Part shown: positions 2,373 to 58,601 of the stretch, in pieces | Layout of the letters: every line of letters begins with the position of its first letter | Position numbering within the stretch: the stretch's first letter is position 1 | Source of the DNA: Candidatus Omnitrophota bacterium | GTDB lineage: Bacteria; Omnitrophota; Gorgyraeia; 2-01-FULL-45-10 | NCBI GenBank assembly: GCA_041663425.1 | Contig: JBAYMS010000002.1 | Coordinates: forward strand, 2,076-66,075 | Direction of reading: 5' to 3' | Length of the DNA: 64,000 nucleotides | Notes under the pieces: model-generated | What the model saw: the letters and a program-made list of their open reading frames with translations, nothing else | Database searches by the model: none | What the model was told of the DNA's origin: nothing | Position numbers and translations under genes: made by a program

Positions 2373-2401
2373 TTGACAGGCATAATCGTGAATGGTATAT
2401 G
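2373..2401 (+). promoter_or_regulatory. Putative sigma70 promoter (TTGACA-17-TATATG) driving the riboswitch leader
   Basis: TTGACA at 2373-2378, 17-nt spacer, TATATG at 2396-2401. Confidence 0.3.
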
Positions 2402-2411
2402 TAATATATAA

Positions 2412-2520
2412 CTTTGGCAGGGAATTCGGTGAGAACCCGAAACTGTACCCGCAACTGTATGCAGGCATGTAATGTGACCTGTGAGTCAGAACGCGAAGTC
2501 CTCCGGGAATAGAGGTGCTA
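2412..2520 (+). promoter_or_regulatory. Cobalamin (B12) riboswitch-like leader
   Basis: GGGAAttcGGTGagAAcCCgaaaCtGtaCCCGCAACTGTA matches the conserved Cbl-riboswitch core (GGGAA..GGUG.AA..CC...CCCGCAACUGUA); a downstream GAGTCAGAA...CCTCC is a B12-box-like element; it sits 5' of nrdDG, a known Cbl-riboswitch regulon. Confidence 0.6.
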
Positions 2521-2548
2521 AAATAGTCTTAACAAGAAAGATTATTTG

Positions 2549-2584
2549 ACCCAATCTCTATAGAAGAGGTTGGGTTTTTTTATT
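2549..2584 (+). terminator. Intrinsic terminator hairpin (probable riboswitch expression platform)
   Basis: ACCCAATCTC-tatagaa-GAGGTTGGGT followed by TTTTTTTATTTT. Confidence 0.5.
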
Positions 2585-2642
2585 TTATGCGGCCTTAAAC
2601 AGCGTATGCGTATATGGGAGTAAATAAAAAGGAGGTTGATAA

Positions 2643-3395
2643 ATGTCACAAGTAAAGTTACATGTAAAGTTATTGGATTTTTCACAAAACGCTTTGTCTA
2701 TAATCTATGCAGCCTGCCGGCAATGTTATTCATCGGCTTTTGCCGGGCAGATATTTACTGAAGGTTTTAAAGACTCAGCTAAACAGGAAGAATTTGTCAG
2801 GCAGGTTGTTTCCTCGGGGCATGAAAGCCCGCTTGAGCATGTAAAATTTACCTTTGCTATCGAAGGAGTATCGAGAGCTCTTACGCATCAGCTTGTAAGG
2901 CATAGGGTAGCTTCGTATTCTCAGCAGAGCCAGAGGTATGTAAAAGAGACCGCTTTCGATTATATTATTCCGCCTTCTATAGAATCCGACGAAGAGATGA
3001 GACAGGAGTATGTTGGCGCTATGCGGAAAATCCAGGATAGTTATAACAACCTGCTGAAAATGTTTGAGAAAAAAGGAAGGAAGGGTGAGGCCGCAAACCA
3101 GGATACTCGGTTTGTCTTGCCGCAAGCGGTAGAGACAAAGATAGTCGTGACTATGAACTGCAGGGAATTAAAACATTTCTTTGAGGAACGCTGCTGCACC
3201 CGTGCGCAATGGGAGATTAGATCTCTGGCGGAGGAGATGCTCACGATATGCAAGAAGGAGCTGCCCGCTGTGTTTGATAATTCGGGCGCAAAATGCGTCG
3301 GATTGGGTTATTGTCCGGAAGGCGCAAAATTTACATGTAAAAAATATCCATTAAAAGAAGAAGCTCTTGGAGGTAAGTATGCCGATACTCGCTGA
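2643..3395 (+). CDS. thyX: Flavin-dependent thymidylate synthase ThyX
   Basis: ThyX signature RHRxxSxxxxSxRY (HQLVRHRVASYSQQSQRYV); 250 aa; AAAGGAGG RBS 7 nt upstream. Confidence 0.85.
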   Translation: MSQVKLHVKLLDFSQNALSIIYAACRQCYSSAFAGQIFTEGFKDSAKQEEFVRQVVSSGHESPLEHVKFTFAIEGVSRALTHQLVRHRVASYSQQSQRYVKETAFDYIIPPSIESDEEMRQEYVGAMRKIQDSYNNLLKMFEKKGRKGEAANQDTRFVLPQAVETKIVVTMNCRELKHFFEERCCTRAQWEIRSLAEEMLTICKKELPAVFDNSGAKCVGLGYCPEGAKFTCKKYPLKEEALGGKYADTR

Positions 3396-5487
3396 AAATA
3401 TGTTTAAGAAAATAGTAAAAAGGGACGGCTCTGAAGAAGAATTTGATTCCGGGAAGATTGTAAATGCTATAAATAAAGCAGGAATTGCAGCGGGTGAGTT
3501 TGGCATTGAGACTGCTGAAAAGCTGGCGGACAAGGTTTTAAATACAGCTTTTCAGTTTGCCGTTAACGATAATCCGTCGGTCGAGGTAATACAGGATATT
3601 GTGGAAGAAGTGCTTATAGCTTCACCATATAAAAAAGCCGCTAAGGCGTTTATTTTATACAGGGATGAACATGCCCGGATACGGGAAATTACATCGAAGT
3701 TTAATGTTAATCTTGTAGATCAATATATCAATAATATGGATTGGCAGGTAAAAGAGAACAGTAATATGGGATTTTCCCTACAGGGGCTTAATAATTATCT
3801 TTCTTCGGAAGTGAGTAAGATATACTGGCTTAACAAAATTTATACCAGCAATATTAAGGAAGCCCATTTAAGCGGAGATTTTCATATTCACGATCTCGGT
3901 ATTTTAAGTGCATATTGCGTAGGTTGGGATCTCCAGGATTTGCTTGTTACCGGATTTAAAGGTGTGAGGGGTAAGTCGGAAGCGAAACCGGCAAAACATC
4001 TGCGGACTGCGTTAGGGCAGATAGTGAATTTTTTCTATACGCTTCAGGGGGAGGCAGCAGGCGCTCAGGCCTTTTCGAATTTTGATACATTATTGGCTCC
4101 GTTCATATATTACGATAATTTAGATTACAAAGCCGTAAAGCAGGCGCTTCAGGAATTTCTCTTTAACGTGAATGTTCCTACGCGCGTAGGGTTTCAGACG
4201 CCTTTTACGAATATTACATTAGACCTGACAGTTCCTTCGTATTTTAAAGATCAGGGTGTGATAATAGGCGGTGAAGCGCAGTCCCGGACATATAAAGAGT
4301 TTGCGAAAGAAATGGATATGTTTAACAGGGCGTTTCTTGAAGTGATGTTGGCCGGTGACGCGAAAGGCCGGGTATTTACTTTTCCAATCCCTACCTACAA
4401 CATATCGAAAGATTTTGATTGGGACAATCCTAACCTGTCTCTCTTGTGGGAAGTGACCGCTAAGTACGGCATACCTTATTTTGCGAACTTTGTTAACTCT
4501 GATATGAATCCCGAAGACGCCCGCAGTATGTGCTGTCGTTTGCGTATAGATAACCGTGAGTTGCGCAAGCGCGGAGGGGGATTGTTCGGTTCTTCACCGT
4601 TAACAGGTTCGATAGGTGTGGTGACAATAAATATGCCCCGCCTCGGTTATCTGTCCAAAAGCGAAGATGAATTTTTCGCCCGGCTGGATCGGCTTATGCG
4701 CATGGCGAAAGCAAGCCTAAGGATTAAAAGGAAAGTGCTGGAGCAATTGACGGCGAACGACCTTTATCCGTACGTTAAATTCTACCTTAGAAATGTCCAC
4801 CAGCGTTTTGGCGAATATTGGAAAAATCATTTTTCAACAATAGGCCTTACGGGTATGAATGAGGCCTGCCTCAATTTTTTAGGTGAAGATATAGGCTCGC
4901 GCCGTGGTAAAGAGTTTGCCTTAAAAGTTATGGATTTTATGAGGGATAAACTTGTTGAATTTCAAAAAGAAACGGGGGACAATTACAATCTTGAAGCTAC
5001 ACCTGCCGAAGGCACGTCGTATAGGCTTGCCAAACTCGATAAAGAAAGATATCCGGGCATCATAGACGCTAATAATCTTAAAACGGATATTAAGAAAACG
5101 TCATTTTACACGAACTCAACCCAGCTTCCGGTAAACTATACAGACGATCTTTTTAAATTACTAGATCTGCAGGATGAGCTTCAGACAAAATATACCGGCG
5201 GAACAGTCCAGCATCTTTTTATCGGCGAAAGGATAAGCGATACGGATGCGCTTAAAAGCCTGATTAAGAAAATATGTACAAAATTTCATCTGCCGTATTT
5301 TTCGATTACACCGACCTTCAGCGTTTGCCCATCCTGCGGCTATATGGCCGGCGAAGTGCAGATATGCCCTACCTGCAAAAGTGTGTGCGAAGTGTATTCG
5401 AGGGTCGTGGGGTATCTACGCCCGGTAGTCCAATGGAACGACGGTAAACAGGCAGAATTCAGTATGAGGAAGACGTTGAAAATATGA
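3367..5487 (+). CDS. nrdD: Anaerobic ribonucleoside-triphosphate reductase (class III RNR)
   Basis: 706 aa; C-terminal glycyl-radical region and CPSCG...CPTC zinc ribbon; overlaps thyX by 29 nt and is followed by its activase. Confidence 0.9.
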   Translation: MEVSMPILAENMFKKIVKRDGSEEEFDSGKIVNAINKAGIAAGEFGIETAEKLADKVLNTAFQFAVNDNPSVEVIQDIVEEVLIASPYKKAAKAFILYRDEHARIREITSKFNVNLVDQYINNMDWQVKENSNMGFSLQGLNNYLSSEVSKIYWLNKIYTSNIKEAHLSGDFHIHDLGILSAYCVGWDLQDLLVTGFKGVRGKSEAKPAKHLRTALGQIVNFFYTLQGEAAGAQAFSNFDTLLAPFIYYDNLDYKAVKQALQEFLFNVNVPTRVGFQTPFTNITLDLTVPSYFKDQGVIIGGEAQSRTYKEFAKEMDMFNRAFLEVMLAGDAKGRVFTFPIPTYNISKDFDWDNPNLSLLWEVTAKYGIPYFANFVNSDMNPEDARSMCCRLRIDNRELRKRGGGLFGSSPLTGSIGVVTINMPRLGYLSKSEDEFFARLDRLMRMAKASLRIKRKVLEQLTANDLYPYVKFYLRNVHQRFGEYWKNHFSTIGLTGMNEACLNFLGEDIGSRRGKEFALKVMDFMRDKLVEFQKETGDNYNLEATPAEGTSYRLAKLDKERYPGIIDANNLKTDIKKTSFYTNSTQLPVNYTDDLFKLLDLQDELQTKYTGGTVQHLFIGERISDTDALKSLIKKICTKFHLPYFSITPTFSVCPSCGYMAGEVQICPTCKSVCEVYSRVVGYLRPVVQWNDGKQAEFSMRKTLKI

Positions 5488-6086
5488 AAATAGGAGGTTT
5501 GCAGAAACTTTCGCTTATAGACTATCCGGGAAAGACGTGCGCGGTGATATTCACTCAAGGATGTAATTTCCGGTGTAGTTATTGCCATAATCCAGAACTT
5601 GTCTATCCGGAACTTTTTGCCGAGCCGATTTCCTTTGAACATACGTATGAATTCCTTAAAGCGAAATCTGGGTTATTGGATGGAGTCGTTTTTTCCGGAG
5701 GAGAGCCGACTCTGCACGGAGATCTTATTGAAAGAATCAGAGATATCCGTTCTTTAGGATATGCCGTTAAACTTGATACAAATGGAAGCAACCCTGACGT
5801 TTTGTCTGAGGTATTGCCTTGTCTTGATTATGTTGCTATGGATATTAAGGCTCCTATGGGGAATAAATATACGAGTATTTGCGGTATGTCTGTCGATGAT
5901 TATGATATACGTGTGAGCATGCTTTTAATAAAGGCATCAGGAATTCAGCATGAGTTCAGGACGACGTTTGACAGAAAATTATTGGAAAATACAGATATTG
6001 CAAAGATTAAGAGTTTGGCAGGCGGCTCAAAATTTAATTTGCAAGAATGTTTAAGTCTAAAAAAATATCCGGGCCATACGACCTGA
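5484..6086 (+). CDS. nrdG: Anaerobic RNR activating protein (radical SAM)
   Basis: CNFRCSYCHNPE radical-SAM CxxxCxxC motif; 200 aa; start overlaps the nrdD stop by 4 nt. Confidence 0.85.
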   Translation: MKIGGLQKLSLIDYPGKTCAVIFTQGCNFRCSYCHNPELVYPELFAEPISFEHTYEFLKAKSGLLDGVVFSGGEPTLHGDLIERIRDIRSLGYAVKLDTNGSNPDVLSEVLPCLDYVAMDIKAPMGNKYTSICGMSVDDYDIRVSMLLIKASGIQHEFRTTFDRKLLENTDIAKIKSLAGGSKFNLQECLSLKKYPGHTT

Positions 6087-6202
6087 AATTTTATGCCAAT
6101 AGTTCCCTGTAAGTATTTCAAAAAGTCAGTTAATTCTATATTGTCTTTATTTTATTTATGCTAGACTAAATTATATCTCAAAGTTTCAGTATAAAATTTT
6201 TA

Positions 6203-6233
6203 TGCTTGGCACTAAAAAGCCGAGCATTTTTTA
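6203..6233 (+). terminator. Putative intrinsic terminator after nrdG
   Basis: TGCTTGGC-actaaaaa-GCCGAGCA hairpin (one G-U pair) followed by TTTTTTATT. Confidence 0.4.
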
Positions 6234-6262
6234 TTAATAAGCAAATTTAAAAAGGATGAAAT

Positions 6263-9200
6263 GTGTCAAAAAGAAAAGTATTTTTAAGCATTACCGCATG
6301 CATACTTGTTTCGGTTTTTTCTTTTAATACCTGTTGCTATGGGTTGGCGACAGCGCCTGCTTCACAAAACTCTATTGTTAGAAGAGAAGTTCTCGCTGCT
6401 CTTGAACGAACTAATATAAGGATCGCCAAGTCGGCTGAGGAGCTGAGGCTTCTGTCGGCAAATGACGATGCAGCGGCGCTTTTGCTGTCGTCCGGTAAAA
6501 AGCTTATATCCGGTAATATTTTCGATAACGATTTAAAGCTTCTGCGGGCCATATGGCACGAAGAGATTGAAGCGATACTGCAGATCATGGCTAAAGAAGA
6601 CAGAAGTAAATACCAGGGCATGAAAGAACTGGTTTTAAATTATTTCCCTCCGGTAAAAAATAATAAGCTACCCGTAGAATTATATGTAAATCATAACATT
6701 GCTCTCGCTTTCGAATGGATGTTAATGGAGTATGCCGGGATACCAATAGATAATGAAATATCTCCCGAGGAAGAAGGATTCCTTAAGGCAATAAGGCCGA
6801 TAATAATGTCTAATAAGACCAGCTATTTCACATCCGAATTCTGGGATCCGGGTTTACGACGCGAGAAAATAAGAAGAGCAATCAATGACGGGATGGTGTT
6901 TTATCAGACGGCTGACAGCAGGGGTGATGAAAAACAGATAAAGCATTTTTTTACTCTCAGAGATGCTTTATTGGGCCAACTTTCGGCTGCGGCAGGGATA
7001 GCCTTTGATGCTGGTATAAATATGGATCCTGCCAAGCGCACAGATTGGATAAAAAGGGTTATAAAATGTTCTGCCTCAGTGCCTGCGGATAGTTATCTCA
7101 GGGGGCAATTTCTGTTCTATTTAGCATCAGGTATTGTAAAGCACGCCGATATTTTGCAAAACCCGGAAGAGCTGCTGCGCGAAACAATAAAAGCCGCAGG
7201 CGCTTCGACAAGTTACTACAGCAGGGATGACGTGTTATACAGAATAGCGCTATATGCATGCGAACAAAAAAGATTTGTCGAGGAAGCCCTGATGGCAGTA
7301 GGTCTGACTGGTAACGAGCATGACATATCTTTATACGAAAAGAGCAAGGTGCCGGTAAAAATTTTCATACAGCCGTATTGTTATGGTGATCTGGAAAACC
7401 GTATAAAGAAAATATTAACAGATACTTTGCATGAAGCCGATGAATCTGAATATACAGCTTATGCTGTATACGCTATAAGTTCTATTGGGTCGGTTATGGC
7501 TGAGAGAAAAGAGCTTGTAGAAGAAGCGCAGGGTGCTTTTAAACTAGCTGTCAAGAAAGCAAACTTGTCGAAGGGCTCTGAAAGAGTTATGCTGCTTGGT
7601 CATATTGCGTCTATTATGTATAGCTATGAGGAATTAAGGAGATCAGGGCGGGGGTTGTTTGATTTTGCAGTATCTGAAGCGCACAAAATTAAAGACGCGA
7701 ATGAAAGAGAGGTAGGCCTCTCCTACTTAGCCTATTATATGGCTAAGCATAAAGATCTTATAGGTGAGGCCGAGTCAATAGCGGTGTCGCTTAAGAGCAA
7801 AACGTGGCATGACAGTGCGTTGGAAAAAATTATCTTAGAAATGGTTGAAAATAAGGATTTGATAGATCGGGCTATTGCGCTGGCGAATTCTATCGAGGAT
7901 ATTGATAGTAGGGAATCTAAATTGGCTATTATTGCATCAAGGATAGCTGAGGATGCAGAATTTATAAATAAAGCTATAGCCATAGTCAAATCGATAAACA
8001 GGGGAATTTTCAGCCGGAACGGTGCAGTAAGTAAAATTATACCGAATGCGCTACAAGATAGAAGTTCGATTTTTGAAGTAATGGAGTTGATAAAATTAAT
8101 TAGAGATGATGATGCTAAGAAAGTTGAGGCGTTAAGGCATTTCGCAACTGCGGTAGCCGGGTATTCAGATTTAATAGCAGAAGAGAAGGCATTGCTCAGA
8201 GCTGCTGCAGAAATAGCTGATTCAATGAGTGATAACATCTCAAGCGCTAAAGCTATTACCTATATTGCCTCAGGCATGGCGCAACAAAAAAACCTTGAGA
8301 ATGAGGCTAAGGTGTTATTTGATAAAGCATTTAGCAAGGCGCAGTTAATAGAAGGTCCGTGGTTTAAGGCTCCAGTCCTGCGTGTAATTGCTTCGGAAAT
8401 GGTTAAGCATGCTTATCTCCGGGATCAGGCAGAGGCAGTGCTTATGATGGCAATAGACAGCGCCGATTCGGGCAGGGAAATAGATGGTCGTGAGGATTTG
8501 GGTGAAAATGCGGAATCGAGGAGCGTCGCTCTATATGAAATTGGTTTTAAAATGGCAGATTTTTTAAAAGATGAAGGAGCGGATCGTATACAGGGATTTT
8601 TAGAAGATGCAACCCAAGGCGCAATAAGCACAAATGGCGGGGTCCGCGCTGCGGACAAATTTAAACGAAGAATAAGAAAGAAGATGGATGAGCTGAATGG
8701 TGAGCCCGGATATCTTGCGACCGAAATAGCGGGGATTGCCTCAAAGATGGCTAAGGCAGGATTGGTTTCTGAGGCGCGTGTTGAGTTTGAGCATGCAATA
8801 GATATAGTCAGGAAGAATGCGGAAGATCTTGAGCGAAGCTATAGAAGTGAAGGTAGAAAGATAGATTGGCTGGATACGGGCGATGATGAATTCCTGGAAG
8901 AGAATAATCCATGGAGGTTGTTGAATGAAATCGCTGTAAAAATGGGAAGGTGCGAGGCTTTCAAAGAAGAAGCGATTGAGCTGGCAAGAACTATCGACGA
9001 TCCTTTCCAAAGGAAAATTGCATTAAAAATGTTGGGCGAAAGAGGTCTTGTTGAAGCAGATAAGCTGGACATAGCGTATGATACGAACTTTACTACTATT
9101 CTCACAATGGATCTTGCCTATGCTCAGTTTCAGGACGACAGGGTTTACGAAATAAAATATGATAAATCAAGGCTGTCTCTTTCTCAGGTTGCAATCATTG

Positions 9201-9661
9201 AGGCATATGTAAAATTGCTGCAGGCTAGAACCTCGGGCCAGGACAATGTGAGGCTGAGGCCTTTTTCAAGCGAACAGGGCTCCGCGGAGTCTCTTATAGC
9301 TGTTTATTGTACCGGTAAGAATTTTAAAGGAGAAGGTCATGTTGACGTATCAATACCGGATGGCGATTTAAAAGATTACTTATTAAGAATTACAGGCATG
9401 GTGAATATCGCCGTCGCATCATCCAATATACCAGATGATTTATCAAGAGAAGATATCGATAAATACAGGCCCATACTTAGCTACATAAACAATCAGTATA
9501 AAGCAATACTGGGTGAATCTCTAGCTATCCCTGAGTCTCCTGAGGATATTTTAAAAGTTATAAGAAGGATCGTGCTAGGGTTGCCTAAATCATTGCGTTC
9601 CGATTTCAGCCATATAGAGGAATATAATAGGCTTGCCAAACAAGCCCTCGCCGCAGCATAA
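6263..9661 (+). CDS. Large secreted alpha-helical repeat protein (HEAT/TPR-like degenerate repeats), function unknown
   Basis: 1132 aa; N-terminal signal peptide (MSKRKVFLSITACILVSVFSF); a repeated unit of about 35-40 aa rich in A/I/K/E (e.g. SKLAIIASRIAEDAEFINKAIAIVKSI, PGYLATEIAGIASKMAKAGLVSEARVEF); no catalytic motif recognised. Confidence 0.6.
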   Translation: MSKRKVFLSITACILVSVFSFNTCCYGLATAPASQNSIVRREVLAALERTNIRIAKSAEELRLLSANDDAAALLLSSGKKLISGNIFDNDLKLLRAIWHEEIEAILQIMAKEDRSKYQGMKELVLNYFPPVKNNKLPVELYVNHNIALAFEWMLMEYAGIPIDNEISPEEEGFLKAIRPIIMSNKTSYFTSEFWDPGLRREKIRRAINDGMVFYQTADSRGDEKQIKHFFTLRDALLGQLSAAAGIAFDAGINMDPAKRTDWIKRVIKCSASVPADSYLRGQFLFYLASGIVKHADILQNPEELLRETIKAAGASTSYYSRDDVLYRIALYACEQKRFVEEALMAVGLTGNEHDISLYEKSKVPVKIFIQPYCYGDLENRIKKILTDTLHEADESEYTAYAVYAISSIGSVMAERKELVEEAQGAFKLAVKKANLSKGSERVMLLGHIASIMYSYEELRRSGRGLFDFAVSEAHKIKDANEREVGLSYLAYYMAKHKDLIGEAESIAVSLKSKTWHDSALEKIILEMVENKDLIDRAIALANSIEDIDSRESKLAIIASRIAEDAEFINKAIAIVKSINRGIFSRNGAVSKIIPNALQDRSSIFEVMELIKLIRDDDAKKVEALRHFATAVAGYSDLIAEEKALLRAAAEIADSMSDNISSAKAITYIASGMAQQKNLENEAKVLFDKAFSKAQLIEGPWFKAPVLRVIASEMVKHAYLRDQAEAVLMMAIDSADSGREIDGREDLGENAESRSVALYEIGFKMADFLKDEGADRIQGFLEDATQGAISTNGGVRAADKFKRRIRKKMDELNGEPGYLATEIAGIASKMAKAGLVSEARVEFEHAIDIVRKNAEDLERSYRSEGRKIDWLDTGDDEFLEENNPWRLLNEIAVKMGRCEAFKEEAIELARTIDDPFQRKIALKMLGERGLVEADKLDIAYDTNFTTILTMDLAYAQFQDDRVYEIKYDKSRLSLSQVAIIEAYVKLLQARTSGQDNVRLRPFSSEQGSAESLIAVYCTGKNFKGEGHVDVSIPDGDLKDYLLRITGMVNIAVASSNIPDDLSREDIDKYRPILSYINNQYKAILGESLAIPESPEDILKVIRRIVLGLPKSLRSDFSHIEEYNRLAKQALAAA

Positions 9662-21820: not shown

Positions 21821-22807
21821 ATGAATATAAGAGAACTGGCAAGGTTAGTAGGCGGGGCTATAGAAGGTGATAGCGATATTGACATAATAGGGGTAAGCGG
21901 CATAGAAACCGCTAAGTCGGGCGATATGGCGTTCGCGCTTAGCGAAGAAAGGCTGGCAGGCGCCGAGAAAAGCAAGGCCTCCTGTATATTGACAGATAAA
22001 ACCATAAGAAAATCTACAAAAACTCTTATACGGGTAAAAAACCCTAAACTATCTTTTCTTATTAGCAGCAATATATTAAATGTCCCACAGGTCCGGGAAT
22101 CATTTGTGCACTCGGCAGCTACGGTATCTGATAAAGCATGTCTCGGGGAAAACGTCTGGATCGACTCTGGCGTTAGAATAGAAGAGGGCGTGGTGATCGG
22201 AGATCATGTGATCGTAGAGTCTAACTCCGTGATAAAGAAAAATTGTGAGCTGGGTTCGTATTGTCATATCTATCCAAACGTTACATTATACGAAAATACA
22301 AAGCTACAAAAAAATGTGATCTTACATAGCGGCGTTGTGATCGGCTCAGACGGATTTGGTTATGTAAAAGATAATGGTAAGATATATAAATTTCCACAGC
22401 TTGGCAAAGTTATAATAGAAGACGACGTTGAGATCGGAGCTAATACAACCATAGATAGGGGATCCTTGAGCGATACTGTGATCGGCTCAGGCACGAAGAT
22501 TGACAACTTATGCCAAATCGCCCATAATGTAAAAATAGGGAATAATATGCTGATGGCTGCGCAATGCGGTATTTCCGGCAGCACAACTATAGGAAGCGAT
22601 GTGACGATGGGCGGGCAGGCAGGTGTAGTCGATAATGTTACGATAGGCGACAATGTAATTATAGGTGCTAAAAGCGCGGTTATAGGCAATGTAAAAAGTG
22701 ATTCAGTCCTCTGGGGCATCCCAGCCAGACCGATCGCTCAAACGAAAAGGCAGATGGCTGTTTTGTCATGGTTAGCTAAAAATTTTAAAAAAATTAAAAC
22801 GCATTAA
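21821..22807 (+). CDS. lpxD: UDP-3-O-acylglucosamine N-acyltransferase
   Basis: 328 aa; left-handed beta-helix hexapeptide repeats; N-terminal IRELA...IIGVSGIE LpxD domain. Confidence 0.85.
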
Positions 22808-24283: not shown

Positions 24284-24466
24284 CTACTCCTCCTTTGTTG
24301 CTTCTACGACCGGCGAAACTGCCGTATCGTTATTCACCGCTTGAACAGGGACCTCCCCTGCAAGCGCGTTCTTCTTATCTAATTTACGCTGCATCTTTTC
24401 TTCTTTTTTCTTTTTCTTTGCCTGTTCTCTTTTGAATTTTTGATATGAATAATTATCTCTGGCCAT
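24284..24466 (-). CDS. Small lysine-rich basic protein (60 aa), unknown function
   Basis: AAAGGAGG RBS 7 nt upstream of the ATG ([32 protein letters not shown]...); its stop lies 1 nt before the zinc-ribbon ATG in a different frame. Confidence 0.4.
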
Positions 24467-25457
24467 TAGAGCCTCCTTTTTTGGACTTCTTGGCAAGCCT
24501 TGACAGGACGGCCATCTGCCTTTTGGCGTGAGCTATAGGCCTTGCAGGAATACCCCAGATTACTGATCCGCTTTTTACATTGCCTATAACCGCGCTTTTA
24601 GCACCTATGGTTACATTGTCACCGATCGTTACGTTGTCGACTATGCCCGCTTGCCCTCCCATTGTGACATTATTGCCTACAGTAGTGCTGCCTGATATGC
24701 CGCACTGCGCCGCCATCAGGAAATTTTTTCCTATCTTGACGTTGTGGGCGATCTGGCATAAGTTGTCGATCTTCGTGCCCGAGCCGATGATGGTATCTCC
24801 TAAAGACCCCCTGTCTATGGTGGTGTTTGATCCGATTTCTACATCATCTTCGACAATAACTCTGCCAAGCTGTGGGAATTTATATATCTTACCATTGTCT
24901 TTTACATAACCAAATCCGTCTGAGCCGATCACAACGCCGCTATGTAAGATCACATTTTTTTGTAGTTTTGTATTTTCATAAAGCGTTACATTGGGGTAGA
25001 TATGGCAGAAGGAGCCTATGGAGCAGTTCTTCTTTACCACGGAATTGGATTCTATTATCACATGGTCTCCCAGCTCTGCGCCTTCCTCTATAGTGACATT
25101 TGGCCCTATCCATACGTTTTTTCCTATATTAGCAGAATCTGAAACCGTAGCCATGGGGTGTATGAACGATTCCCTGTCTTTCGGTGCATTAAACGTGTTG
25201 TATATAATAAGGAAGGAGAGTTTCGGGTTGGTTACTCTTATGAGAGTTTTGGATGATTTCCTTATGGTTTTATTCGTCAATACGCATGAAGCGCTGCTTC
25301 TTTCGGCTCCTGCAAGCTTGTCTTCATCCATCGCAAATGTGAGATCGCCTGATTTAGCTTTTTCTATGCCGCTTAATCCGATGATGTCGATATTATCGTT
25401 GCCTTCTACAAAACCTTCTATAAGCTGTGCCAGTTCTCGTATTTTCATAATCTCCAC
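24453..25457 (-). CDS. lpxD: UDP-3-O-acylglucosamine N-acyltransferase, second inverted paralog
   Basis: 334 aa, about 80% aa identity to the + strand lpxD; the central part is nearly identical at nucleotide level; basic C-terminal tail [12 protein letters not shown]. Confidence 0.85.
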
Positions 25458-25904: not shown

Positions 25905-27701
25905 ATGCTGAACTTTTTACCGAAACAACTTTTCATGATCGATCCGCTTGCGATATTTTTTCTTATCGTTATAGGCCTCGTGTGCATTCCATCGGCAATA
26001 TTTTCGATAGGGTATATGCAGGGCGAGAGTGCTAAGAAAAAAGTGATCGGATGGTCACTTCTCGTGATATTTACCATGTCCATGTGTATGGTAGTGACTT
26101 CAGGCAATCTTCTCTCGTTCCTTATATTCTGGGAAATTATGTCCCTAGCCTCTTATTTCCTGGTAGTTTTCGATTTTAAGCATGAAAAAGCTGTGCGCGC
26201 CGGCACCATCTACCTTATCATGACGCATATAGGAACGGCCTGCATCATGGCCGCGTTCTTTATGCTGTATAATTGCGCGGGCTCATTCGATTTTAATGTA
26301 TTAAAACAGGCCGTTACTTCATTGCCTCCCCAGGTTGCAAATATAGTATTTTTACTGTTGTTCGTAGGCTTTGCCACAAAGGCCGGCGTAGTTCCTATGC
26401 ATGTCTGGCTTCCTTACGCTCATCCGGAAGCCCCCAGTCATATTTCAAGTATAATGTCGGGTGTTATGATAAAGATCGCGATATACGGTATGATACGATT
26501 TTTTATAACGCTATTGGGTCCCGGCCCGGCATGGTGGGGTGTCCTTATTATGGGATTCGGGATGATCTCCTGCCTAGTCGGCGTGATATATGCCCTCATG
26601 GATCAGAAGCTTAAAAAATTGCTCGCTTATTCGAGCGTCGAGAATATAGGTATAATACTTCTCGGTGTGGGGGCTGCGATGTTCTTCGGATCTATCGGCA
26701 TAGCTGCCGTTGCCGTGCTAAGTCTATGTGCCGGACTTTACCACATCGTAAATCATGCGCTCTTCAAAGGGCTGCTATTCCTTTGCGCGGGAAGCGTGCT
26801 TAAAACGACCCTTTTGCATGACATGGAGAAGATGGGCGGGCTCATTAAAGCCATGCCCGCAACCGGATTGCTATTTTTAGTCGGCGCTATGGGTATTTCT
26901 GCGCTGCCTCCATTTAATGGCTTTGTCAGTGAATGGCTTACGTTCCAAGCTTTCTTTTCCGGCGTATTGCAGTCTCAGGGTGGTGTGAAATTTTTCATGG
27001 TCCTGTCCGCAGCTGTGCTCGCATTGACGAGCGGGCTTGCGGCTGCATGTTTTGTCAAAGCGTTCGGCATTGCTTTTCTCGCCATGCCGCGAAGTGCACG
27101 CGCTAAGGAAGCTAAGGAAGCCAGCCTGTCTATGAGGGCGGGTATGGCTATACTGGCAGCGGGGGTTGTTTTATTCGGCATAGGTGCAGGTTTTATAGCG
27201 CCGCTTATATTCAATGTCGCGCGCGGTGTATTCAGCGCAGAAAGCATACAGGGATCTTTCTATTTTGTGTCAATCCTGCCTCCGGCCATCGCGATATTAA
27301 TGCTTGCGATGGGAGGCTTGATTTTTCTGTGGTTCAAATTCGGCCTGCGCACAAAACAGACTAGCTATAATACATGGGATTGTGGATATTACAACCTCAA
27401 CAGCCGCAATGAATATACCGGCACTGCTTTTTCAAAACCTTTCAGGATAGCCTTCAGCTTTTTTCTTCTGCCTTACCGTAAAAGTGAAAAGATAAGGGAC
27501 TCATTTTATCATGTGCGCAAATTTACTTATGAGACGCATACCACAATGGTGTTTAAGAACTATTTTTATCAGCCGTTGACACGCTTTGTTTACTCGACGG
27601 CATCAAAGATGAAAAAACTGCAGCCAGGAAGTATTCACCTGTATATTTTTTACATTTTTATTACCCTGGCAATTTTACTGGCAGTCACGGCGGCATTTTA
27701 A
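25905..27701 (+). CDS. Ehr/Hyf-type complex, NuoL/HyfB-like antiporter-like membrane subunit
   Basis: 598 aa; Mrp-antiporter-like motif WLPYAHPEAPSHISSIMSGVMIKIAIYGMIRF. Confidence 0.8.
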   Translation: MLNFLPKQLFMIDPLAIFFLIVIGLVCIPSAIFSIGYMQGESAKKKVIGWSLLVIFTMSMCMVVTSGNLLSFLIFWEIMSLASYFLVVFDFKHEKAVRAGTIYLIMTHIGTACIMAAFFMLYNCAGSFDFNVLKQAVTSLPPQVANIVFLLLFVGFATKAGVVPMHVWLPYAHPEAPSHISSIMSGVMIKIAIYGMIRFFITLLGPGPAWWGVLIMGFGMISCLVGVIYALMDQKLKKLLAYSSVENIGIILLGVGAAMFFGSIGIAAVAVLSLCAGLYHIVNHALFKGLLFLCAGSVLKTTLLHDMEKMGGLIKAMPATGLLFLVGAMGISALPPFNGFVSEWLTFQAFFSGVLQSQGGVKFFMVLSAAVLALTSGLAAACFVKAFGIAFLAMPRSARAKEAKEASLSMRAGMAILAAGVVLFGIGAGFIAPLIFNVARGVFSAESIQGSFYFVSILPPAIAILMLAMGGLIFLWFKFGLRTKQTSYNTWDCGYYNLNSRNEYTGTAFSKPFRIAFSFFLLPYRKSEKIRDSFYHVRKFTYETHTTMVFKNYFYQPLTRFVYSTASKMKKLQPGSIHLYIFYIFITLAILLAVTAAF

Positions 27702-27704
27702 ATT

Positions 27705-28589
27705 ATGATAAAATTAAACGATATGATAATGGTAGTGGTGGAAGGGCTGCTGCTTATACTCATAGCCCCTCTTATAAGCGGGGTCATAAGGAAAATAAAG
27801 AATGTATTTCGTATGCGTAAAGGGCAGAGCGTGCTGCAGCCTTACTATAATATCCGGAAGCTTTTTTTAAAGGATGAGGTTATCTCAAAGAATGTTTCAT
27901 GGATATTTTACGCAGCGCCAGTTATAGTTTTTGCCGGAAGCGTAACAGCTCTTCTCATGGTCGTCGCGATAAATCCGAGGGCCATCACAGAAAATACAGC
28001 AGCTTTATTCATAGCCGTATTTTTCGTTCTGGGGATCGGCCGTTTCTTTTTAGCGCTTGCCGGGCTCGACGCCGGCTCTTCGTTTGGAGGCATGGGCTCG
28101 TCGCGGGAAATGTTCATCTCAAGTTTTGTCGAACCTGCTATTTTTATAACGGTATTTGTTTTGTGTATGGGCGGGGGAGGGGTTTACAGGGTCTCTGCGC
28201 TTCTGGCGGGAGCCGCTCTTTTTATGGCAGTGATCGCTGAGACTTCACGTGTCCCGGTGGACAACCAGGAGACGCATCTCGAATTGACCATGATACACGA
28301 AGCAATGGTCCTTGAATATTCCGGGAGATCTCTGGCGCTCATAGAATTGGCTTCTCATATAAAGCAGATAGCGCTTTTTACAGTACTTTCATGGTACCTC
28401 TTTCCATATACGATAATGGGAATGAGTGGATATCTGTCGTTCCCTGTAAAGATAGCAGCTATTTGTCTGGCGGTCGCAGTGGTCGAGATATCGGTAGCCA
28501 AAATGAGGTTATTCAGGGCGGTAGATTTTTTAAGCTTTTCTTTTTTCATAGCGATTGTTGCTTCGATCGCAGCTATATTGGGGTTATAA
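27705..28589 (+). CDS. NuoH/HycD-like membrane subunit
   Basis: 294 aa; conserved EAMVLEYSGRSLAL (E..EYSG) NuoH/HycD signature. Confidence 0.8.
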   Translation: MIKLNDMIMVVVEGLLLILIAPLISGVIRKIKNVFRMRKGQSVLQPYYNIRKLFLKDEVISKNVSWIFYAAPVIVFAGSVTALLMVVAINPRAITENTAALFIAVFFVLGIGRFFLALAGLDAGSSFGGMGSSREMFISSFVEPAIFITVFVLCMGGGGVYRVSALLAGAALFMAVIAETSRVPVDNQETHLELTMIHEAMVLEYSGRSLALIELASHIKQIALFTVLSWYLFPYTIMGMSGYLSFPVKIAAICLAVAVVEISVAKMRLFRAVDFLSFSFFIAIVASIAAILGL

Positions 28590-28592
28590 ATT

Positions 28593-29231
28593 ATGATACT
28601 CAGTTTCTTATTAAGCGGTTTTCTTATCGTAACATTTCTTCTGGTGGTAGCCAAAAGAATTACCGCGCTTGTCCGCGCCTTCAGGATGCAGTCGGTATTC
28701 CTTTTTCTGTATACGCTTTATATGGCGCTCAATCAGCGTCATTTTGAGTTATTTATTGTATGCGGACTGGTCTTTGTTCTTAAAGCTGTGATCATACCAT
28801 TTGTCCTTCTGCGTATTACGCGCCGGATAAACGTGGAAGAAGATCTGGGGCTTCTGATAAATCCGCAGGTATCGCTCGTTATAGCGCTTGCCTTCGTATA
28901 TCTTTCATATCTATTTGCGCATAATGCCATGGGGCTTAAAAATCTAGCGGAATCCGCGGCCTTCATAGCCTCGATCACTACCGTGTGCATAGGTTTCTTC
29001 ATTATGGCCAGCCGGATGAAAGCGCTCAGCCAGATAGTGGGGCTTCTAGTTATGGAAAACGGTATATTTCTTGCAGCTGCATCGATAGCGGGAGGGATGC
29101 CGTTTTTCGTAGAAATAGCGTTATTCTTCGACGTCTTTGTATTTGTTATCATTGTCGAGGTTTTTGTGTATAAGGTAAACAGGCTTTTTACGCATATCGA
29201 TACATCTAAGATGCAGTCACTTAAAGGATAA
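28593..29231 (+). CDS. HyfE-like (NuoK-related) small membrane subunit
   Basis: 212 aa, about 6 TM helices; position and size match HyfE/MbhG-type subunits. Confidence 0.6.
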   Translation: MILSFLLSGFLIVTFLLVVAKRITALVRAFRMQSVFLFLYTLYMALNQRHFELFIVCGLVFVLKAVIIPFVLLRITRRINVEEDLGLLINPQVSLVIALAFVYLSYLFAHNAMGLKNLAESAAFIASITTVCIGFFIMASRMKALSQIVGLLVMENGIFLAAASIAGGMPFFVEIALFFDVFVFVIIVEVFVYKVNRLFTHIDTSKMQSLKG

Positions 29232-29233
29232 TA

Positions 29234-30697
29234 ATGTTAATAGCGCTGATAATTTTAATACCGGTTTTTTTGACGATAGCTTCACTATTCATCAGGAAGG
29301 TGAAGCCGGCCGGGATGGTCAACGTATTCGGTTACGCGGCGGTTCTGGCAGTATCTGTTCTGCTATTAAGGGATTTCGTCGCCAAAGGAAATGCGCCCAT
29401 AAATTTGTGGGGATGGTTTTATGTTGATGCGCTCAGCGTATTTTTCCTGCTGACCACCGCTGTGGTTAGTTTTGCGGCGAGCGTGTATTCGATAGGGTAT
29501 ATAAACTTCGAGGTAGAAGAGGGGAAAATATCTGTCCGCAAAGCATGCGCTTATTTCCAATTATTTAATTTATTTTCTCTCGCAATGGTTATGGTGCCCC
29601 TTCTTAGCAACCTGCCGCTGGTCTGGATAGCTATCGAAATGACGACGCTCATCTCAGCTTTCCTTGTGGGATTCCACAATGTAAAGGAATCGATCGAGGC
29701 GGCCTGGAAATATATAATTATTTGTTCAGTTGGCATAACCTTTGCGCTTTTAGGAATAATATTTTTCTATTACACTTCATCGAAAGATGCGGGCGTGAGC
29801 AGCATGGAATGGCTTAGTATGTTCTCCGGCTCCGGCGCGTTTAATCCAAAAGTTGTGAGGCTTGCTCTTGTCTTCATATTTGTAGGATACGGAACAAAAG
29901 CAGGGCTTGCGCCGATGCATAACTGGCTTCCCGATGCGCACAGCCAGGCACTTTCTCCTATAAGCGGACTCTTATCCGGCGTGCTTATAAAAATATCTTT
30001 GTATGCCATATTACGTTTTGTGATGCTGGCAAATCTCTCAGTCGGTTACGCATACAGCGCGAAACTTTTTATACTTTTTGGTTTGGTCTCGATCGCTATC
30101 GCCGGAGCCTTTATACTTGTCCAGAAGGACCTTAAAAGATTATTTGCTTATTCAAGCGTTGAGAACATAGGGCTTATATCTTTAGGTTTTGGGTTCGGGC
30201 CTTTCGGTGGTATAGTCGCCGGACTTCTTCAGGCGTTTAACCACGCTGTAACCAAGGCGCTTATGTTCTTCTGCGCCGGAGAAGCTGTGAGAGTTTATAA
30301 AACCAACAATATGAACCAGATGCAGGGCATGATAAAGGTGATGCCGTTTACAGGTACGGCGATGTTTCTCGGGCTCTTTGCGCTCGTCGGGATGCCGCCT
30401 TTCTCTATATTTATAAGTAAGGTGGCGATATTCATAGCCGCATTCCAGGGAAAACACTATTTTGCCGCTTCGGTCATGTTCATCTTTATAGCGCTTGCTT
30501 TTGCGGGGCTGCTCTATCATATAAGCAGAATAATTTTAAGGAATAAGCCTCAGGCTATGCCCGTCCAGAAAGAACCTTTAAGTGCAAAAATAGCTTTTAT
30601 ATTTTTAGGAGTTTTCATATTAGGATTCGGGTTAGCGATACCTCGGGTGTTTTTTGAATTGCTTTTAAATTGTCAGCAGCTTATTTTGGGTAAATAG
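29234..30697 (+). CDS. NuoN/HyfF-like antiporter-like membrane subunit
   Basis: 487 aa; WLPDAHSQALSPISGLLSGVLIKISLYAILRF motif. Confidence 0.8.
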   Translation: MLIALIILIPVFLTIASLFIRKVKPAGMVNVFGYAAVLAVSVLLLRDFVAKGNAPINLWGWFYVDALSVFFLLTTAVVSFAASVYSIGYINFEVEEGKISVRKACAYFQLFNLFSLAMVMVPLLSNLPLVWIAIEMTTLISAFLVGFHNVKESIEAAWKYIIICSVGITFALLGIIFFYYTSSKDAGVSSMEWLSMFSGSGAFNPKVVRLALVFIFVGYGTKAGLAPMHNWLPDAHSQALSPISGLLSGVLIKISLYAILRFVMLANLSVGYAYSAKLFILFGLVSIAIAGAFILVQKDLKRLFAYSSVENIGLISLGFGFGPFGGIVAGLLQAFNHAVTKALMFFCAGEAVRVYKTNNMNQMQGMIKVMPFTGTAMFLGLFALVGMPPFSIFISKVAIFIAAFQGKHYFAASVMFIFIALAFAGLLYHISRIILRNKPQAMPVQKEPLSAKIAFIFLGVFILGFGLAIPRVFFELLLNCQQLILGK

Positions 30698-32281
30698 ATG
30701 AATAATTCTGAGTATATAAAAAACATTTTAAATTCTGAAAATATCGAAGCGCTTAATTTGTCCATGGCGTATGAGGATGAGTTATATATAAAAGCATCCG
30801 GAGCGGATTTTGGCAGAATATGTAAGGCGCTGCACAAACGCCTTGATTCTCCGGTAATGACATTTTTCGCTGAGGATATGCGCCTGACATCAGGCGTATT
30901 CGTATTGACATGTGTTTTTCTAAGCATTCAGAGCCGTTCCTGGATATTTATCCAGCAGGATATTCCGCAGGACGATCCTAAATTTACTTCGCTCGCAAAA
31001 GATATTTATTCCGCCAGTCTTTTCGAGCGGGAGATGCGGGAAATGTTCGGCATAAAGCCCGAAGGCAATCCTGATGCCAGAAGCCTCAGACTTCATGATG
31101 AGGTATGGCCGAAAGGATACTATCCGCTGCGTAAAGATTTTGTTCCCCCGAAGGAGAAACCTGACGGGAGCGCGCAATATCAGTTTAAACGCGTAGACGG
31201 CGAAGGGATATTTGAAGTTCCGGTCGGGCCAGTCCACGCGGGCATTATCGGCCCTGGCCATTTCAGGTTCAGTGTGGCAGGTGAGCCCATTGTAAATTTA
31301 GAGACACGTCTTGGCTGGACACACAGAGGTGTGGAGAAAATTCTCGAAGGCAAAGGGCTTGATGAAGCCGTAAATATAGCAGAATGCATAAGCGGTGATA
31401 CCGCGTTTGGCTACAGCCTTGCCTTTTGCAAAAGTGCGGAAAAGATACTCAGTATAGAAGTCCCCGTCAGGGCACAGCTCCTACGCGTCATGTTTTTAGA
31501 AATGGAACGGCTATATAATCATGCAAATGACATGGGCGGTATCGCCCTGGATGTCGGTTTCAGCTTTCCGGCGCAGTTTGCGAGCCTGATCAAGGAAGCT
31601 ATCCTGCGGCTTAATGAGGATCTGACCGCCTCGCGATATCTTAAAGGTGTAAATGCAGTCGGCGGGGTGAAGAAAAATATAAGCAGGGAGAAACTTAAAA
31701 TCGTTCCCGAGCTTCTTGAAAAAATAGAAAAAGATCTTCTCGCTATGGAGGATATGCTATTTTCGAGCATATCTTTTATGGACCGTTCTGATGCCACGGG
31801 AATTTTACGGACAAAGACGGCGCGCGACCTTGGCATAACCGGAGTTGCGGCACGCGCGAGCGGCATAGGGCTGGACGTGAGAAAAGTTTTTGCGGATATT
31901 TATAATAAATTTTCTTTTACGATGCCGAAAGAACATGCAGGCGATGTAACCGCCCGCCTTAAGATCCGGTGTTCTGAAGTTAAGGAATCGATATCGATAA
32001 TAAAACAATGTCTGGGCAGGTTAGATAACTGTGATTCACGAATCAGGGATATAGTTCCGGAAAGAGAAGGCGCGGCGCTGGGCTGTGTTGAAGCATGGCG
32101 TGGAGCGGTGCTTGTCTGGACCAGGCTGGATGTCAAAGGAAAGATCGTCAGATGTAAAATAACGGATCCTTCTTTCCATAACTGGGATGGGCTTTCTTTT
32201 GCGGTGCTGGGAAATATTATTCCAGATTTTCCGTTATGCAATAAAAGTTTCGACTTGTCATATTCGGGTAACGACCTATGA
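30698..32281 (+). CDS. Fused NuoC-NuoD / HycE-like 'large subunit' homologue lacking the NiFe-ligand cysteines
   Basis: 527 aa; GPVHAGIIGPGHFRF...WTHRGVEK core is present; the N-terminal RxCGxC position reads AECISGDTAFGY (both Cys replaced) and the C-terminal DPCxxC position reads DPSFHNWDG (no Cys). Confidence 0.8.
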   Translation: MNNSEYIKNILNSENIEALNLSMAYEDELYIKASGADFGRICKALHKRLDSPVMTFFAEDMRLTSGVFVLTCVFLSIQSRSWIFIQQDIPQDDPKFTSLAKDIYSASLFEREMREMFGIKPEGNPDARSLRLHDEVWPKGYYPLRKDFVPPKEKPDGSAQYQFKRVDGEGIFEVPVGPVHAGIIGPGHFRFSVAGEPIVNLETRLGWTHRGVEKILEGKGLDEAVNIAECISGDTAFGYSLAFCKSAEKILSIEVPVRAQLLRVMFLEMERLYNHANDMGGIALDVGFSFPAQFASLIKEAILRLNEDLTASRYLKGVNAVGGVKKNISREKLKIVPELLEKIEKDLLAMEDMLFSSISFMDRSDATGILRTKTARDLGITGVAARASGIGLDVRKVFADIYNKFSFTMPKEHAGDVTARLKIRCSEVKESISIIKQCLGRLDNCDSRIRDIVPEREGAALGCVEAWRGAVLVWTRLDVKGKIVRCKITDPSFHNWDGLSFAVLGNIIPDFPLCNKSFDLSYSGNDL

Positions 32282-57275: not shown

Positions 57276-57352
57276 GCGCCTGTAGCTCAACTGGATAGAG
57301 TGAGTGGCTTCGAACCACTAGGTCGCAGGTTCGACTCCTGCCAGGCGCGCCA
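57276..57352 (+). tRNA. tRNA-Arg (anticodon TCG)
   Basis: 77 nt; acceptor GCGCCTG/CAGGCGC; anticodon stem AGTGG/CCACT; loop CTTCGAA; T-loop TTCGACT; encoded CCA. Confidence 0.85.
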
Positions 57353-57471
57353 TTTTTAGTCAGTGACGTTTGGGAGTCGAAGACAAATTTGCGCTGACGA
57401 ATAGGAAGAAAAGGCCTCCGGCCGACAGCAAATTTGGCTGGTCCGAAGTTCCGCTATGCGGAACGAAGGAC

Positions 57472-58534: not shown

Positions 58535-58601
58535 TGGCGATGGCAGAATACGCAACATGGCGATCAAAGTTCCGTGATAAAAATTTTGATCGTTTTGTAA
58601 A

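Follow-up and report, generated by a model that had tools for sequence, protein, structure and literature searches.

The 64-kb stretch of a Candidatus Omnitrophota genome studied here (the window; all coordinates are window positions) carries an operon of thyX, nrdD and nrdG, genes for a flavin-dependent thymidylate synthase, a class III ribonucleotide reductase (RNR) and its activase. Judged from its sequence, the leader of this operon is a cobalamin riboswitch, with an aptamer at 2410-2524 and, 5' of thyX-nrdD-nrdG, an anti-terminator/terminator platform at 2509-2583. Taking the evidence together, it is very probable that the leader is an OFF switch responding to vitamin B12, that it belongs to a compact, class-II-like family, that it descends from a tandem pair of riboswitches, and that thyX came under its control through a metE-thyX gene pair. 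A first-pass annotation, made from the letters of the DNA, had proposed that a B12 riboswitch with an intrinsic terminator controls the three genes, and our results support this proposal.

The Rfam model of cobalamin riboswitches, RF00174, found no match in a scan of the whole window at the gathering score. On 2300-2700 it gave a full-length match at 2376-2500 with 31.3 bits (E = 2.4e-6) against a cut-off of 31.5, and on 2404-2490 alone, as a 3'-truncated match, it gave 33.9 bits (E = 9e-8). The first-pass annotation had named this model as a check, and the lack of a significant match, together with the absence of class II RNR and B12 genes from the genome, as grounds for giving up the riboswitch; the full-length alignment falls just short of the cut-off, that of the shorter segment exceeds it, and the riboswitch stands. 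The two alignments differ in register. The full-length one shrinks the 66-nt extension of helix P6 to 3 nt, sets P1/P2 over the promoter and takes CCU 2478-2480 as a strand of P3. The other uses a short hairpin in place of the P6 extension and puts GAGUCA-GA on the B12-box consensus gAGCCAGGA. From the covariation described below, the first of these is the wrong register and the second is the one that the family supports. The B12 box of the first-pass annotation, GAGUCAGAA, lies at 2483-2491, in agreement with the higher-scoring register, and this call was better than Rfam's first alignment as judged by the pairing of the P6 stub, the test of a rival fold and the re-alignment of 2404-2490. The core element GGGAAUUCGGUGAGAACCCGAAACUGUACCCGCAACUGUA which it had pointed out is present at 2420-2459, and its CCTCC element corresponds to CCUCC 2500-2504 of the RNA. 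The conserved core as a whole (GGGAA, P4 with a GGUG..AA loop L4, the CCC of loop L5, and ACUG...AGYCAG) lies at 2419-2491, with posterior probabilities near 1 against the consensus. The score of the window with RF01689, the AdoCbl-II (AdoCbl, adenosylcobalamin) model, is not displayed because RF00174 out-competes it within clan CL00101.

For comparison we used related loci (designated by L and three digits), among them 80 thyX loci from one-genome-per-species contigs, almost all of these from Omnitrophota metagenome-assembled genomes (MAGs); the closest ThyX among these contigs was 83% identical. The NrdD of the window is identical to a protein encoded on a 78.5-kb contig of an Omnitrophota MAG at NCBI. 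The whole leader, from the -35 TTGACA and the extended -10 through the aptamer and the spacer hairpin to the terminator, is kept before the related operons of L001, L004, L006, L007 and L106. Although no RNA pattern was used to find these leaders, which were reached via proteins alone, they too keep the core elements, including AGYCAG. A further 24 loci came from scanning metagenomes with a DNA pattern of three parts, to give 25 distinct leaders, or 26 with that of L106. The genes behind the leaders are metE-nrdDG, metE alone, nrdD alone, metE-thyX-nrdDG and thyX-nrdDG, as well as BtuB-like TonB-dependent receptors with exbB-exbD-tonB, cobD-cbiJ-cobQ-cbiB, and cobC-cobU. These genes make up a classic B12 regulon, and no other indirect evidence for a response of the RNA to corrinoids is as strong. 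B12 control of nrdDG, which the first-pass annotation had invoked, is a known pattern (PMC545781). The orthologous leaders scored 31.6-42.4 bits with Rfam, two of them best against RF01689 (L104 with 41.7 and L095 with 37.6 bits, cut-off 36.5). At the gathering score 16 of the 25 leaders were detected, these two as RF01689, and nine were missed, that of the window among them. A covariance model built from the family, R1, had a single match in the window, whose 130.2 bits was the top score of the family, the window being part of the training set of the model.

Some matches of R1 did not hold up. The one in L051 (17.6 bits), which at first resembled a divergent family member whose kissing loop covaries, was spurious and lies inside a PurB-like coding sequence, and the weak matches in L039 and L040 are cobalamin aptamers of other types, for which R2, a model of the canonical type, scored higher (61.9 and 55.2 bits).

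The secondary structure was evaluated on an alignment of 23 leaders (A2) segmented by fixed anchors, and is expressed as the proportion of alignment cells paired. The proposed structure paired 94.7% of the cells compared with 88.2% in shuffles, its covariation score was 0.242 versus 0.119, a value reached in none of 500 shuffles, and sliding the partner strands by 1-3 columns lowered the pairing to 30-53%. The stub hairpin that replaces the 50-70-nt class-I extension of P6 occurs in each of the 25 leaders, its stem having no fewer than 10 different sequences among them; 91.2% of its cells are paired, and five of its six pairs change on both sides. P4 is paired in 98.3% of cells, with both-side changes in two of five pairs (UA, CG and GC types). 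In P1, the helix that closes the aptamer, 85.5% of cells are paired and three of six pairs change on both sides. A purine at 2416 faces U 2519 in 15 of 15 leaders, and C 2416 faces a base other than U in seven of eight (Fisher p = 3e-5, uncorrected for phylogeny). Helices were further tested by comparing strand pairs of the same leader with pairs swapped among leaders in 5000 permutations; for P1, 151 permutations were equally good. A pairing of the 5' tail with J6/3, the strand joining P6 to P3 (CUUUG:CGAAG), was tried and rejected, the swapped strands being as good in 3659 of 5000 permutations.

Of the helices of the four-way junction P3-P6, covariation is seen in P4 and in P6 away from its base; P3, P5 and the base of P6 are fully paired yet invariant. 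The P3 pairing (AGG:CCU 2500-2502), constant in 22-23 of the 23 leaders and neutral with respect to covariation, is proposed by homology, AAGN-CCU resembling the canonical AAGA-CCU of neighbouring class-I aptamers, with which the last four bases of J6/3 and the CCU align. J6/3 has the consensus R-NNN-CGAA-NN and is exactly 10 nt long in 25 of 25 leaders. CCCG 2448-2451 in L5 is complementary to CGGG 2504-2507 in all 23 leaders without ever varying, and we propose that the two form the kissing contact; the partner abuts the anti-terminator strand. A kissing loop made by three conserved cytidines of L5 is a textbook feature of cobalamin riboswitches (PMC11260477, PMC7367189).

The covarying columns also bear on a different fold. 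In a classical class-II arrangement CCUGUGAGU (2478-2486) would close both P3 and P1, and CCUC...GAGG would be an ordinary P13 on the 3' side of P1, with regulation unchanged. CCU 2478-2480 of the window is able to pair with AGG 2419-2421, the full-length RF00174 alignment chose this pairing, and the RF01689 matches in L104 and L095 read likewise. However, in the same 23 leaders pairing in the closing helices of this fold reached 53.6% and 81.6% of cells and no pair changed on both sides, whereas the same columns pair with the 5' strand of the stub at the 91.2%, and with the changes in five of six pairs, given above. In addition, the stub stems of L086, L088, L089, L102 and L103 are without any CCU, and RF00174 itself moves to the other register, with a higher score, on 2404-2490. 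We therefore reject the classical fold as very unlikely, and describe the leader by the structure in which P1 is formed with the downstream strand.

Transcription would start at about 2408-2410, downstream of a promoter in which TTGACA is invariant among the aligned leaders and is followed at 17-18 nt by a TGn-TAtAaT-like box. A generic promoter scan did not flag 2373-2401 because the -10 box is without its final T. The first-pass annotation had suggested folding 2412-2584 in search of mutually exclusive anti-terminator and terminator structures; both exist and both covary. The anti-terminator has 8 bp in most leaders, with compensatory changes in L084, L102 and L096. Its strands paired with -8.67 kcal/mol within leaders and with -7.89 when swapped, 12 of 5000 permutations being as good; for the arms of the terminator the values were -16.2 and -13.0 kcal/mol, and no permutation in 5000 was as good. 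A scan for terminators found one such site compared with 0.3 expected in shuffles. The annotation had correctly seen a hairpin with a T-tract (hairpin at 2548-2576) in front of the thyX ribosome binding site (RBS), but the distance is about 47 nt, not 60. The spacer hairpin between the anti-terminator strands forms in 17 of the 19 terminator-bearing leaders, with some sequence variation, and was part of the minimum free energy (MFE) fold at every transcript length tested. In the unconstrained MFE fold of transcript 2408-2563 it stands together with the anti-terminator; in the full-length MFE fold the terminator is formed. For a transcript ending at 2563, the closed aptamer (-23.8 kcal/mol) and the anti-terminator (-22.0) are within 2 kcal/mol of each other. 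The two cannot nest together because the 5' strand of the anti-terminator lies inside P1 and its partner outside.

From this arrangement we infer the following mechanism. The RNA started at about 2408 from the extended -10 promoter would fold at 2413-2522 into the cobalamin core, in which P3, P4, P5 and P6 surround GGGAA, L4, L5 and the B12 box. When a corrinoid is bound, CCCG of L5 would pair with CGGG 2504-2507 and P1 would close; these two contacts together would trap AUAGAGGU (2509-2516) inside the aptamer, so that the terminator (2548-2576 and U7) could form and transcription would end before thyX. In the unbound RNA neither the tertiary contact nor P1, which is weak and A/U-rich, would hold, AUAGAGGU would pair with AUCUCUAU (2554-2561), an interaction that would win kinetically, and the polymerase would read into thyX-nrdD-nrdG.

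Several observations weigh against this interpretation. In the full-length alignment the copy of the window is 0.2 bits under the Rfam cut-off, and a default scan misses it. L5:CGGG, P3 and the base of P6 are invariant; in 20 leaders, those of metagenome origin, the search pattern itself fixed them, so that the case for them is one of homology. No further compact leaders came from NrdD relatives with 74-80% identity (L107, L111-L113), hence no variation at the positions fixed by the pattern. A B12-dependent isozyme or B12 transporter was not found in the window: Pfam searches of the larger open reading frames (ORFs) of the 64 kb found no NrdJ, MetH, BtuB or cob genes. The first-pass annotation had predicted an NrdJ elsewhere in the genome. 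The terminator (-16.9 kcal/mol) is far more stable than the anti-terminator (-8 to -11 kcal/mol), therefore read-through must be under kinetic control. Finally, P3 (AGG:CCU) and a 4-bp, P13-like hairpin, CCUC:GAGG, compete for the same nucleotides. Both are close to 100% paired and invariant, and for the bound state homology favours pairing of CCU 2500-2502 with AGG, nearest-neighbour energies with GAGG. Either pairing of the CCU gives the same OFF logic.

The double capacity of CCUC to pair with AGG or GAGG, and the presence of the CCUC:GAGG hairpin in the MFE folds of short transcripts, could also be read as an ON switch, in which the ligand forms P3 and frees GAGG for the anti-terminator, and the hairpin of the unbound RNA sequesters GAGG and lets the terminator form. 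This we find very unlikely, the least probable of the alternatives, as metE, nrdDG, btuB and cob genes are all B12-repressed wherever studied (PMC545781, PMC3766115, PMC9481103), a 4-bp hairpin of -3.3 kcal/mol cannot resist an 8-bp anti-terminator unless it has tertiary support, and in the tandem loci, where the canonical switch that comes second is an OFF switch, an ON switch in first place would keep the genes silent at all times.

The OFF switch of the window probably was once part of such a tandem. Twelve of the 26 leaders carry, after the compact switch and the terminator that belongs to it, a canonical class-I aptamer (100-116 bits) at a distance of about 10-150 nt; at least eight leaders are single. 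The nearest relative with sequence available on the 5' side of the operon is L106 (GCA_028699255.1), whose NrdD is 95% identical. Here the order is promoter, compact switch, canonical switch (aptamer at 4566-4755, 206 bits with R2), two small ORFs and thyX-nrdD-nrdG. The leader of the window is identical to that of L106 at 192 of 209 positions through the first terminator. Beyond this point colinear exact matches continue in pieces: 2575-2591 corresponds to L106 4812-4828 (the tail of the second terminator and the start of the small ORF), and 2601-2609 and 2622-2635 correspond to L106 5202-5210 and 5223-5236, just 5' of the L106 thyX. Most likely the window has lost about 250 nt with the canonical aptamer and terminator stem, the junction falling within two T-tracts, as well as about 370 nt carrying the small ORFs, and its single switch would be the survivor of a tandem pair of a compact and a canonical class-I riboswitch.

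The loss of the second aptamer and the score below the Rfam cut-off raise the possibility that what is left is a decaying relic, which no longer senses B12 after the deletion and whose hairpin acts as a leaky constitutive terminator or attenuator. However, nothing is damaged in the core positions, in the anti-terminator or in the terminator, and the leader shares with its L106 counterpart the 192 of 209 positions mentioned above. Its 130 bits are the top score with R1, though the window helped to build that model. Moreover, at least six other loci (L082, L084, L087, L096, L097 and L104) have the compact switch as their single one, in front of metE or nrdD, and an RNR operon with just one visible promoter would pay a high price for a constitutive terminator of -17 kcal/mol. 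We consider decay very unlikely.

Some further features of these arrays deserve mention. L004 (1667-2389, on the same contig as L085) has three cobalamin aptamers in series before a BtuB-like receptor-exbB-exbD-tonB-thyX cluster: a compact switch with terminator, a canonical RF00174 aptamer (105.8 bits) with terminator, and a class-II-type aptamer (21.4 bits), which adjoins the btuB-like start codon and contains a 14-nt tandem duplication in its P6 insertion. The platform of the canonical L106 aptamer (4745-4820) has three mutually complementary segments, AAGGAUU/AAUCCUU/AAGGAUU, with a U-run after each hairpin option. The conserved small ORFs between riboswitches and first enzyme gene, of 81 and 51 aa and without Pfam match, are missing from the window by deletion and occur in relatives at L106 4824-5069 and 5073-5228, L109 59-463, L001 3550-3789 and L007 5673-6026; they may be regulatory upstream ORFs or small proteins of the B12 regulon.

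The presence of thyX in this transcript follows from the overlap of the three genes and from the position of the next strong terminator, on the 3' side of nrdG, and the suggestion of the first-pass annotation that ThyX is under the same control was correct in this respect. A thyX behind a cobalamin riboswitch was seen in a small clade only, which consists of the window, L106, L001, L006, L007 and L004; L109 and L110 probably belong here too, their contigs stopping short of the leader. In at least 11 of the 80 Omnitrophota species-level loci metE stands directly 5' of thyX (L003, L021, L032, L042, L048, L056, L058, L060 and L073 are among them), and metE-thyX has the look of a conserved pair of one-carbon genes, both enzymes being folate-dependent. 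The pairs with complete upstream sequence had no cobalamin riboswitch at the Rfam gathering score or with R1 and R2, and no S-adenosylmethionine (SAM) riboswitch was detected. The MAG JAFGUY01 has two metE-thyX loci, L003 and L006; L006 is controlled by the riboswitch, and the contig of L003 ends within metE. A regular-expression search for the motif within 500 nt on the 5' side of thyX found nothing in the 80 loci, a misleading result, as metE intervenes and the distance to the leader is about 3 kb. The simplest reading of these gene orders is that thyX entered the regulon when a pre-existing metE-thyX pair was placed with nrdDG behind the switch, and that the lineage to which the window and L106 belong later lost metE from this position. 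A literature search combining thyX or thymidylate synthase with cobalamin riboswitch found no report of a thymidylate synthase in a cobalamin regulon.

Other associations of thyX with B12 genes were noticed. btuB-exbBD-tonB lies 5' of thyX in L004 and L011, and cobalamin aptamers are found directly 3' of thyX in L037 (7109-7298), L039 (6757-6968) and L040 (6906-7115), where they control btuF-btuC-btuD-cobA-like operons.

The features of the leader and the operon are collected in Table 1. The catalytic signatures are kept in all three proteins; at the C-terminus of NrdD there is an RVVGY glycyl-radical motif and a Zn ribbon. Gene callers give a 702-aa product for nrdD, its likely start being ATG 3379, which overlaps the end of thyX, and nrdG overlaps the nrdD stop by 4 nt.

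Table 1. Features of the riboswitch leader and of the thyX-nrdD-nrdG operon, in window coordinates
Feature	Position	Strand	Description and evidence
Promoter	2373-2401	+	-35 TTGACA 2373-2378, 17-nt spacer, extended -10 TG 2393-2394, -10 TATATG 2396-2401
Compact cobalamin aptamer, whole domain	2410-2524	+	RF00174, model R1, structure counts on 23 leaders
P1, 5' strand	2413-2418	+	UUUGGC, closes the aptamer by pairing with GCUAAA 2517-2522; covariation
P3 5' strand and J3/4	2419-2424	+	AGG (proposed partner CCU 2500-2502) and GAA, forming the GGGAA core; RF00174 consensus aGGGAA
P4 hairpin	2425-2441	+	UUCGG/CCGAA (2425-2429:2437-2441), L4 UGAGAAC; covariation
P5	2444-2453	+	UG/CA, L5 UACCCG; fits RF00174 L5 consensus
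P6	2455-2489	+	Base CUG 2455-2457:CAG 2487-2489, internal loop, stub hairpin 2461-2466:2476-2482; covariation
B12 box and J6/3	2483-2499	+	GAGUCAGAA 2483-2491 and AACGCGAAGU 2490-2499; conservation, RF00174
Switching segment	2500-2516	+	CCUCC-GGG-AAUA-GAGG-U, between J6/3 and the P1 3' strand, so inside P1; holds CCU (P3 3' strand), CGGG (L13-equivalent) and AUAGAGGU (anti-terminator 5' strand)
Anti-terminator, 5' strand	2509-2516	+	AUAGAGGU, directly 3' of GGG
Spacer hairpin	2523-2545	+	AUAGUCUU / AAGAUUAU, between the anti-terminator strands
Intrinsic terminator	2548-2583	+	12-bp stem 2548-2559/2565-2576, loop AUAGA, U7
Anti-terminator, 3' strand	2554-2561	+	AUCUCUAU, pairs with 2509-2516, overlaps the terminator 5' arm
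Deletion scar (most likely)	2575-2635	+	Colinear exact matches to L106
RBS and start codon of thyX	2630-2635; 2643	+	AGGAGG; ATG
thyX	2643-3395	+	Flavin-dependent thymidylate synthase, 250 aa; Pfam Thy1 E = 1.6e-70, RHRxxSxxxxS signature
nrdD	3367-5487	+	Class III ribonucleotide reductase with ATP-cone; Pfam NRDD E = 3e-202, plus ATP-cone
nrdG	5484-6086	+	Radical-SAM activase; Pfam Radical_SAM, Fer4_12, CNFRCSYC motif
Operon-end terminator	6202-6237	+	9-bp stem and T-tract

Elsewhere in the window, a 1132-aa ORF without Pfam match lies directly 3' of the nrdG terminator (6263-9661) and is kept in L105, a second assembly of the same sequence. Paralogues of an LpxD-like hexapeptide acyltransferase (21821-22807, + strand; 24453-25457, - strand) flank an OmpA/LysM gene on opposite strands. 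The cluster at 25905-32802 resembles a membrane-bound hydrogenase or an Mrp/complex-I module, with two Proton_antipo_M proteins, NADHdh, a fused 30-kDa/49-kDa subunit (weak NiFeSe match) and a 20-kDa subunit, and four tRNA genes are clustered within 1.6 kb at 57276-58872. Among the related loci, a cobalamin aptamer of 78 bits with the canonical-type model (L107 2388-2594; L108 is the same region) precedes an energy-coupling factor (ECF)-type transporter (CbiQ, a double ATPase and an S component) running straight into nrdD-nrdG. In L088 (= L090) an IS21-type element with Mu-transposase-like IstA and IstB occupies the usual position of platform and target gene on the 3' side of the compact aptamer. 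A 360-aa ORF without Pfam match but with the motif LRVTGIGSLP (L081 8478-9560, - strand; L006 3798-4880) lies between metE or thyX and nrdD in riboswitch-controlled operons, and L007 has a group I intron (RF00028, 55.2 bits) at 2783-2973, about 150 nt 3' of a tRNA gene.

That a B12 riboswitch can shut off a class III RNR was already known (PMC545781). What we consider new is the compact aptamer with an internal kissing partner and anti-terminator strand, at the edge of the Rfam models; the place of this switch at the head of mixed tandem arrays throughout a B12 regulon of Omnitrophota; the deletion history of the window copy; and the lineage-specific inclusion of thyX. As default Rfam misses nine of the 25 leaders, B12 regulons are under-called in Omnitrophota and probably in other uncultured phyla. 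For RNA design it is useful that about 110 nt carry both the sensor and an anti-terminator strand, a measure of the small size that a cobalamin switch can reach, in structural work as well as in riboswitch engineering, and the change from tandem to single by deletion is a clean natural example of the remodelling of riboswitch arrays. Seen from their gene contexts, these ultra-small, host-dependent bacteria appear to tune the synthesis of deoxynucleotides (dNTP), thymidylate (dTMP) and methionine to the supply of corrinoids, a sign of dependence on B12 from their surroundings. More tentatively, it is possible that the element is a distinct subclass which fuses aptamer and platform, with the L5 partner and the anti-terminator strand in a 14-nt segment between P3 and P1 and with a fixed J6/3 of 10 nt, and that the members of a tandem (compact, then canonical class I, sometimes then a class-II aptamer) sense different forms of corrinoid. 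If they do, the array would integrate the corrinoid pool and not merely sharpen the response.

It is instructive to compare the leader with the described cobalamin riboswitches. It shares with class I of RF00174 (T. tengcongensis 4GMA, E. coli btuB) the elements aGGGAA, L4 GGUGnGAA, L5 CCCGC, ACUGUA...gAGYCAG and AAGN-CCU, the proposed pairing of L5 with GGG and, as we propose here from the sequence context, the repression of B12 uptake and synthesis genes and of B12-independent isozymes via a terminator. Unlike class I, the compact aptamer is without a P2 module, there being room for only about 10 nt between the promoter and AGG, and a hairpin of about 22 nt replaces the 50-70-nt P7-P11 extension, RF00174 alignments deleting 56-66 model positions there. 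J6/3 is 10 nt long compared with about 4 in the Rfam consensus, the GGG partner of L5 lies 5' of the P1 3' strand and not in a P13 hairpin downstream of P1, and the compact copies score 31-42 bits versus 100-115 bits for the canonical copies at the same loci. Class I is defined by P2 between P1 and P3 and by a long P7-P11 extension of P6 (PMC7367189); lacking both, the aptamer is not a member of class I.

With class II (Cbl-IIa env8 4FRN, Cbl-IIb, RF01689) the aptamer has in common the lack of P2 and a small P6 extension, and like Cbl-IIb as described (PMC7367189) it has a short P6 hairpin and no bulged J1/3. In contrast to class II, closure of P3 and P1 in the RF01689 manner, by the strand directly 3' of P6, is contradicted by the covariation, and P1 is formed about 35 nt further downstream, enclosing the L13-equivalent and the anti-terminator strand. 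As the aptamer is compact and class-II-like, not of the standard AdoCbl class-I type, its preferred ligand may be AdoCbl or another form such as MeCbl or HyCbl. In described cobalamin riboswitches the partner of L5 is in the P13 hairpin of the downstream expression platform (PMC7367189, PMC11260477, PMC9600662). The leader differs from every described class in that the GGG partner of L5 is inside the aptamer, 5' of the P1 3' strand.

Tandem AdoCbl riboswitch doublets were reportedly described by Sudarsan in 2006. Like these doublets, the arrays in 12 of the 26 leaders, a compact switch with its own terminator and a second complete switch, have the independent-platform, 'pseudo-cooperative' arrangement. 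They differ in that their members are of unlike architecture, compact class-II-like and then class I, and the window retains one of the two. Of tandem AdoCbl doublets 26 have been catalogued (Sherlock 2022, PMC9481103), and according to the same paper a tandem with the AqCbl (aquocobalamin)/class-II type has never been observed, therefore a doublet of mixed architecture appears to be undescribed. In delta-proteobacteria and others, B12 elements that control nrdDG were described in 2003-2004 (Rodionov, PMC545781). The leader of the window agrees with those systems in having a B12 riboswitch 5' of a B12-independent class III RNR and differs from them in that the controlled transcript begins with thyX.

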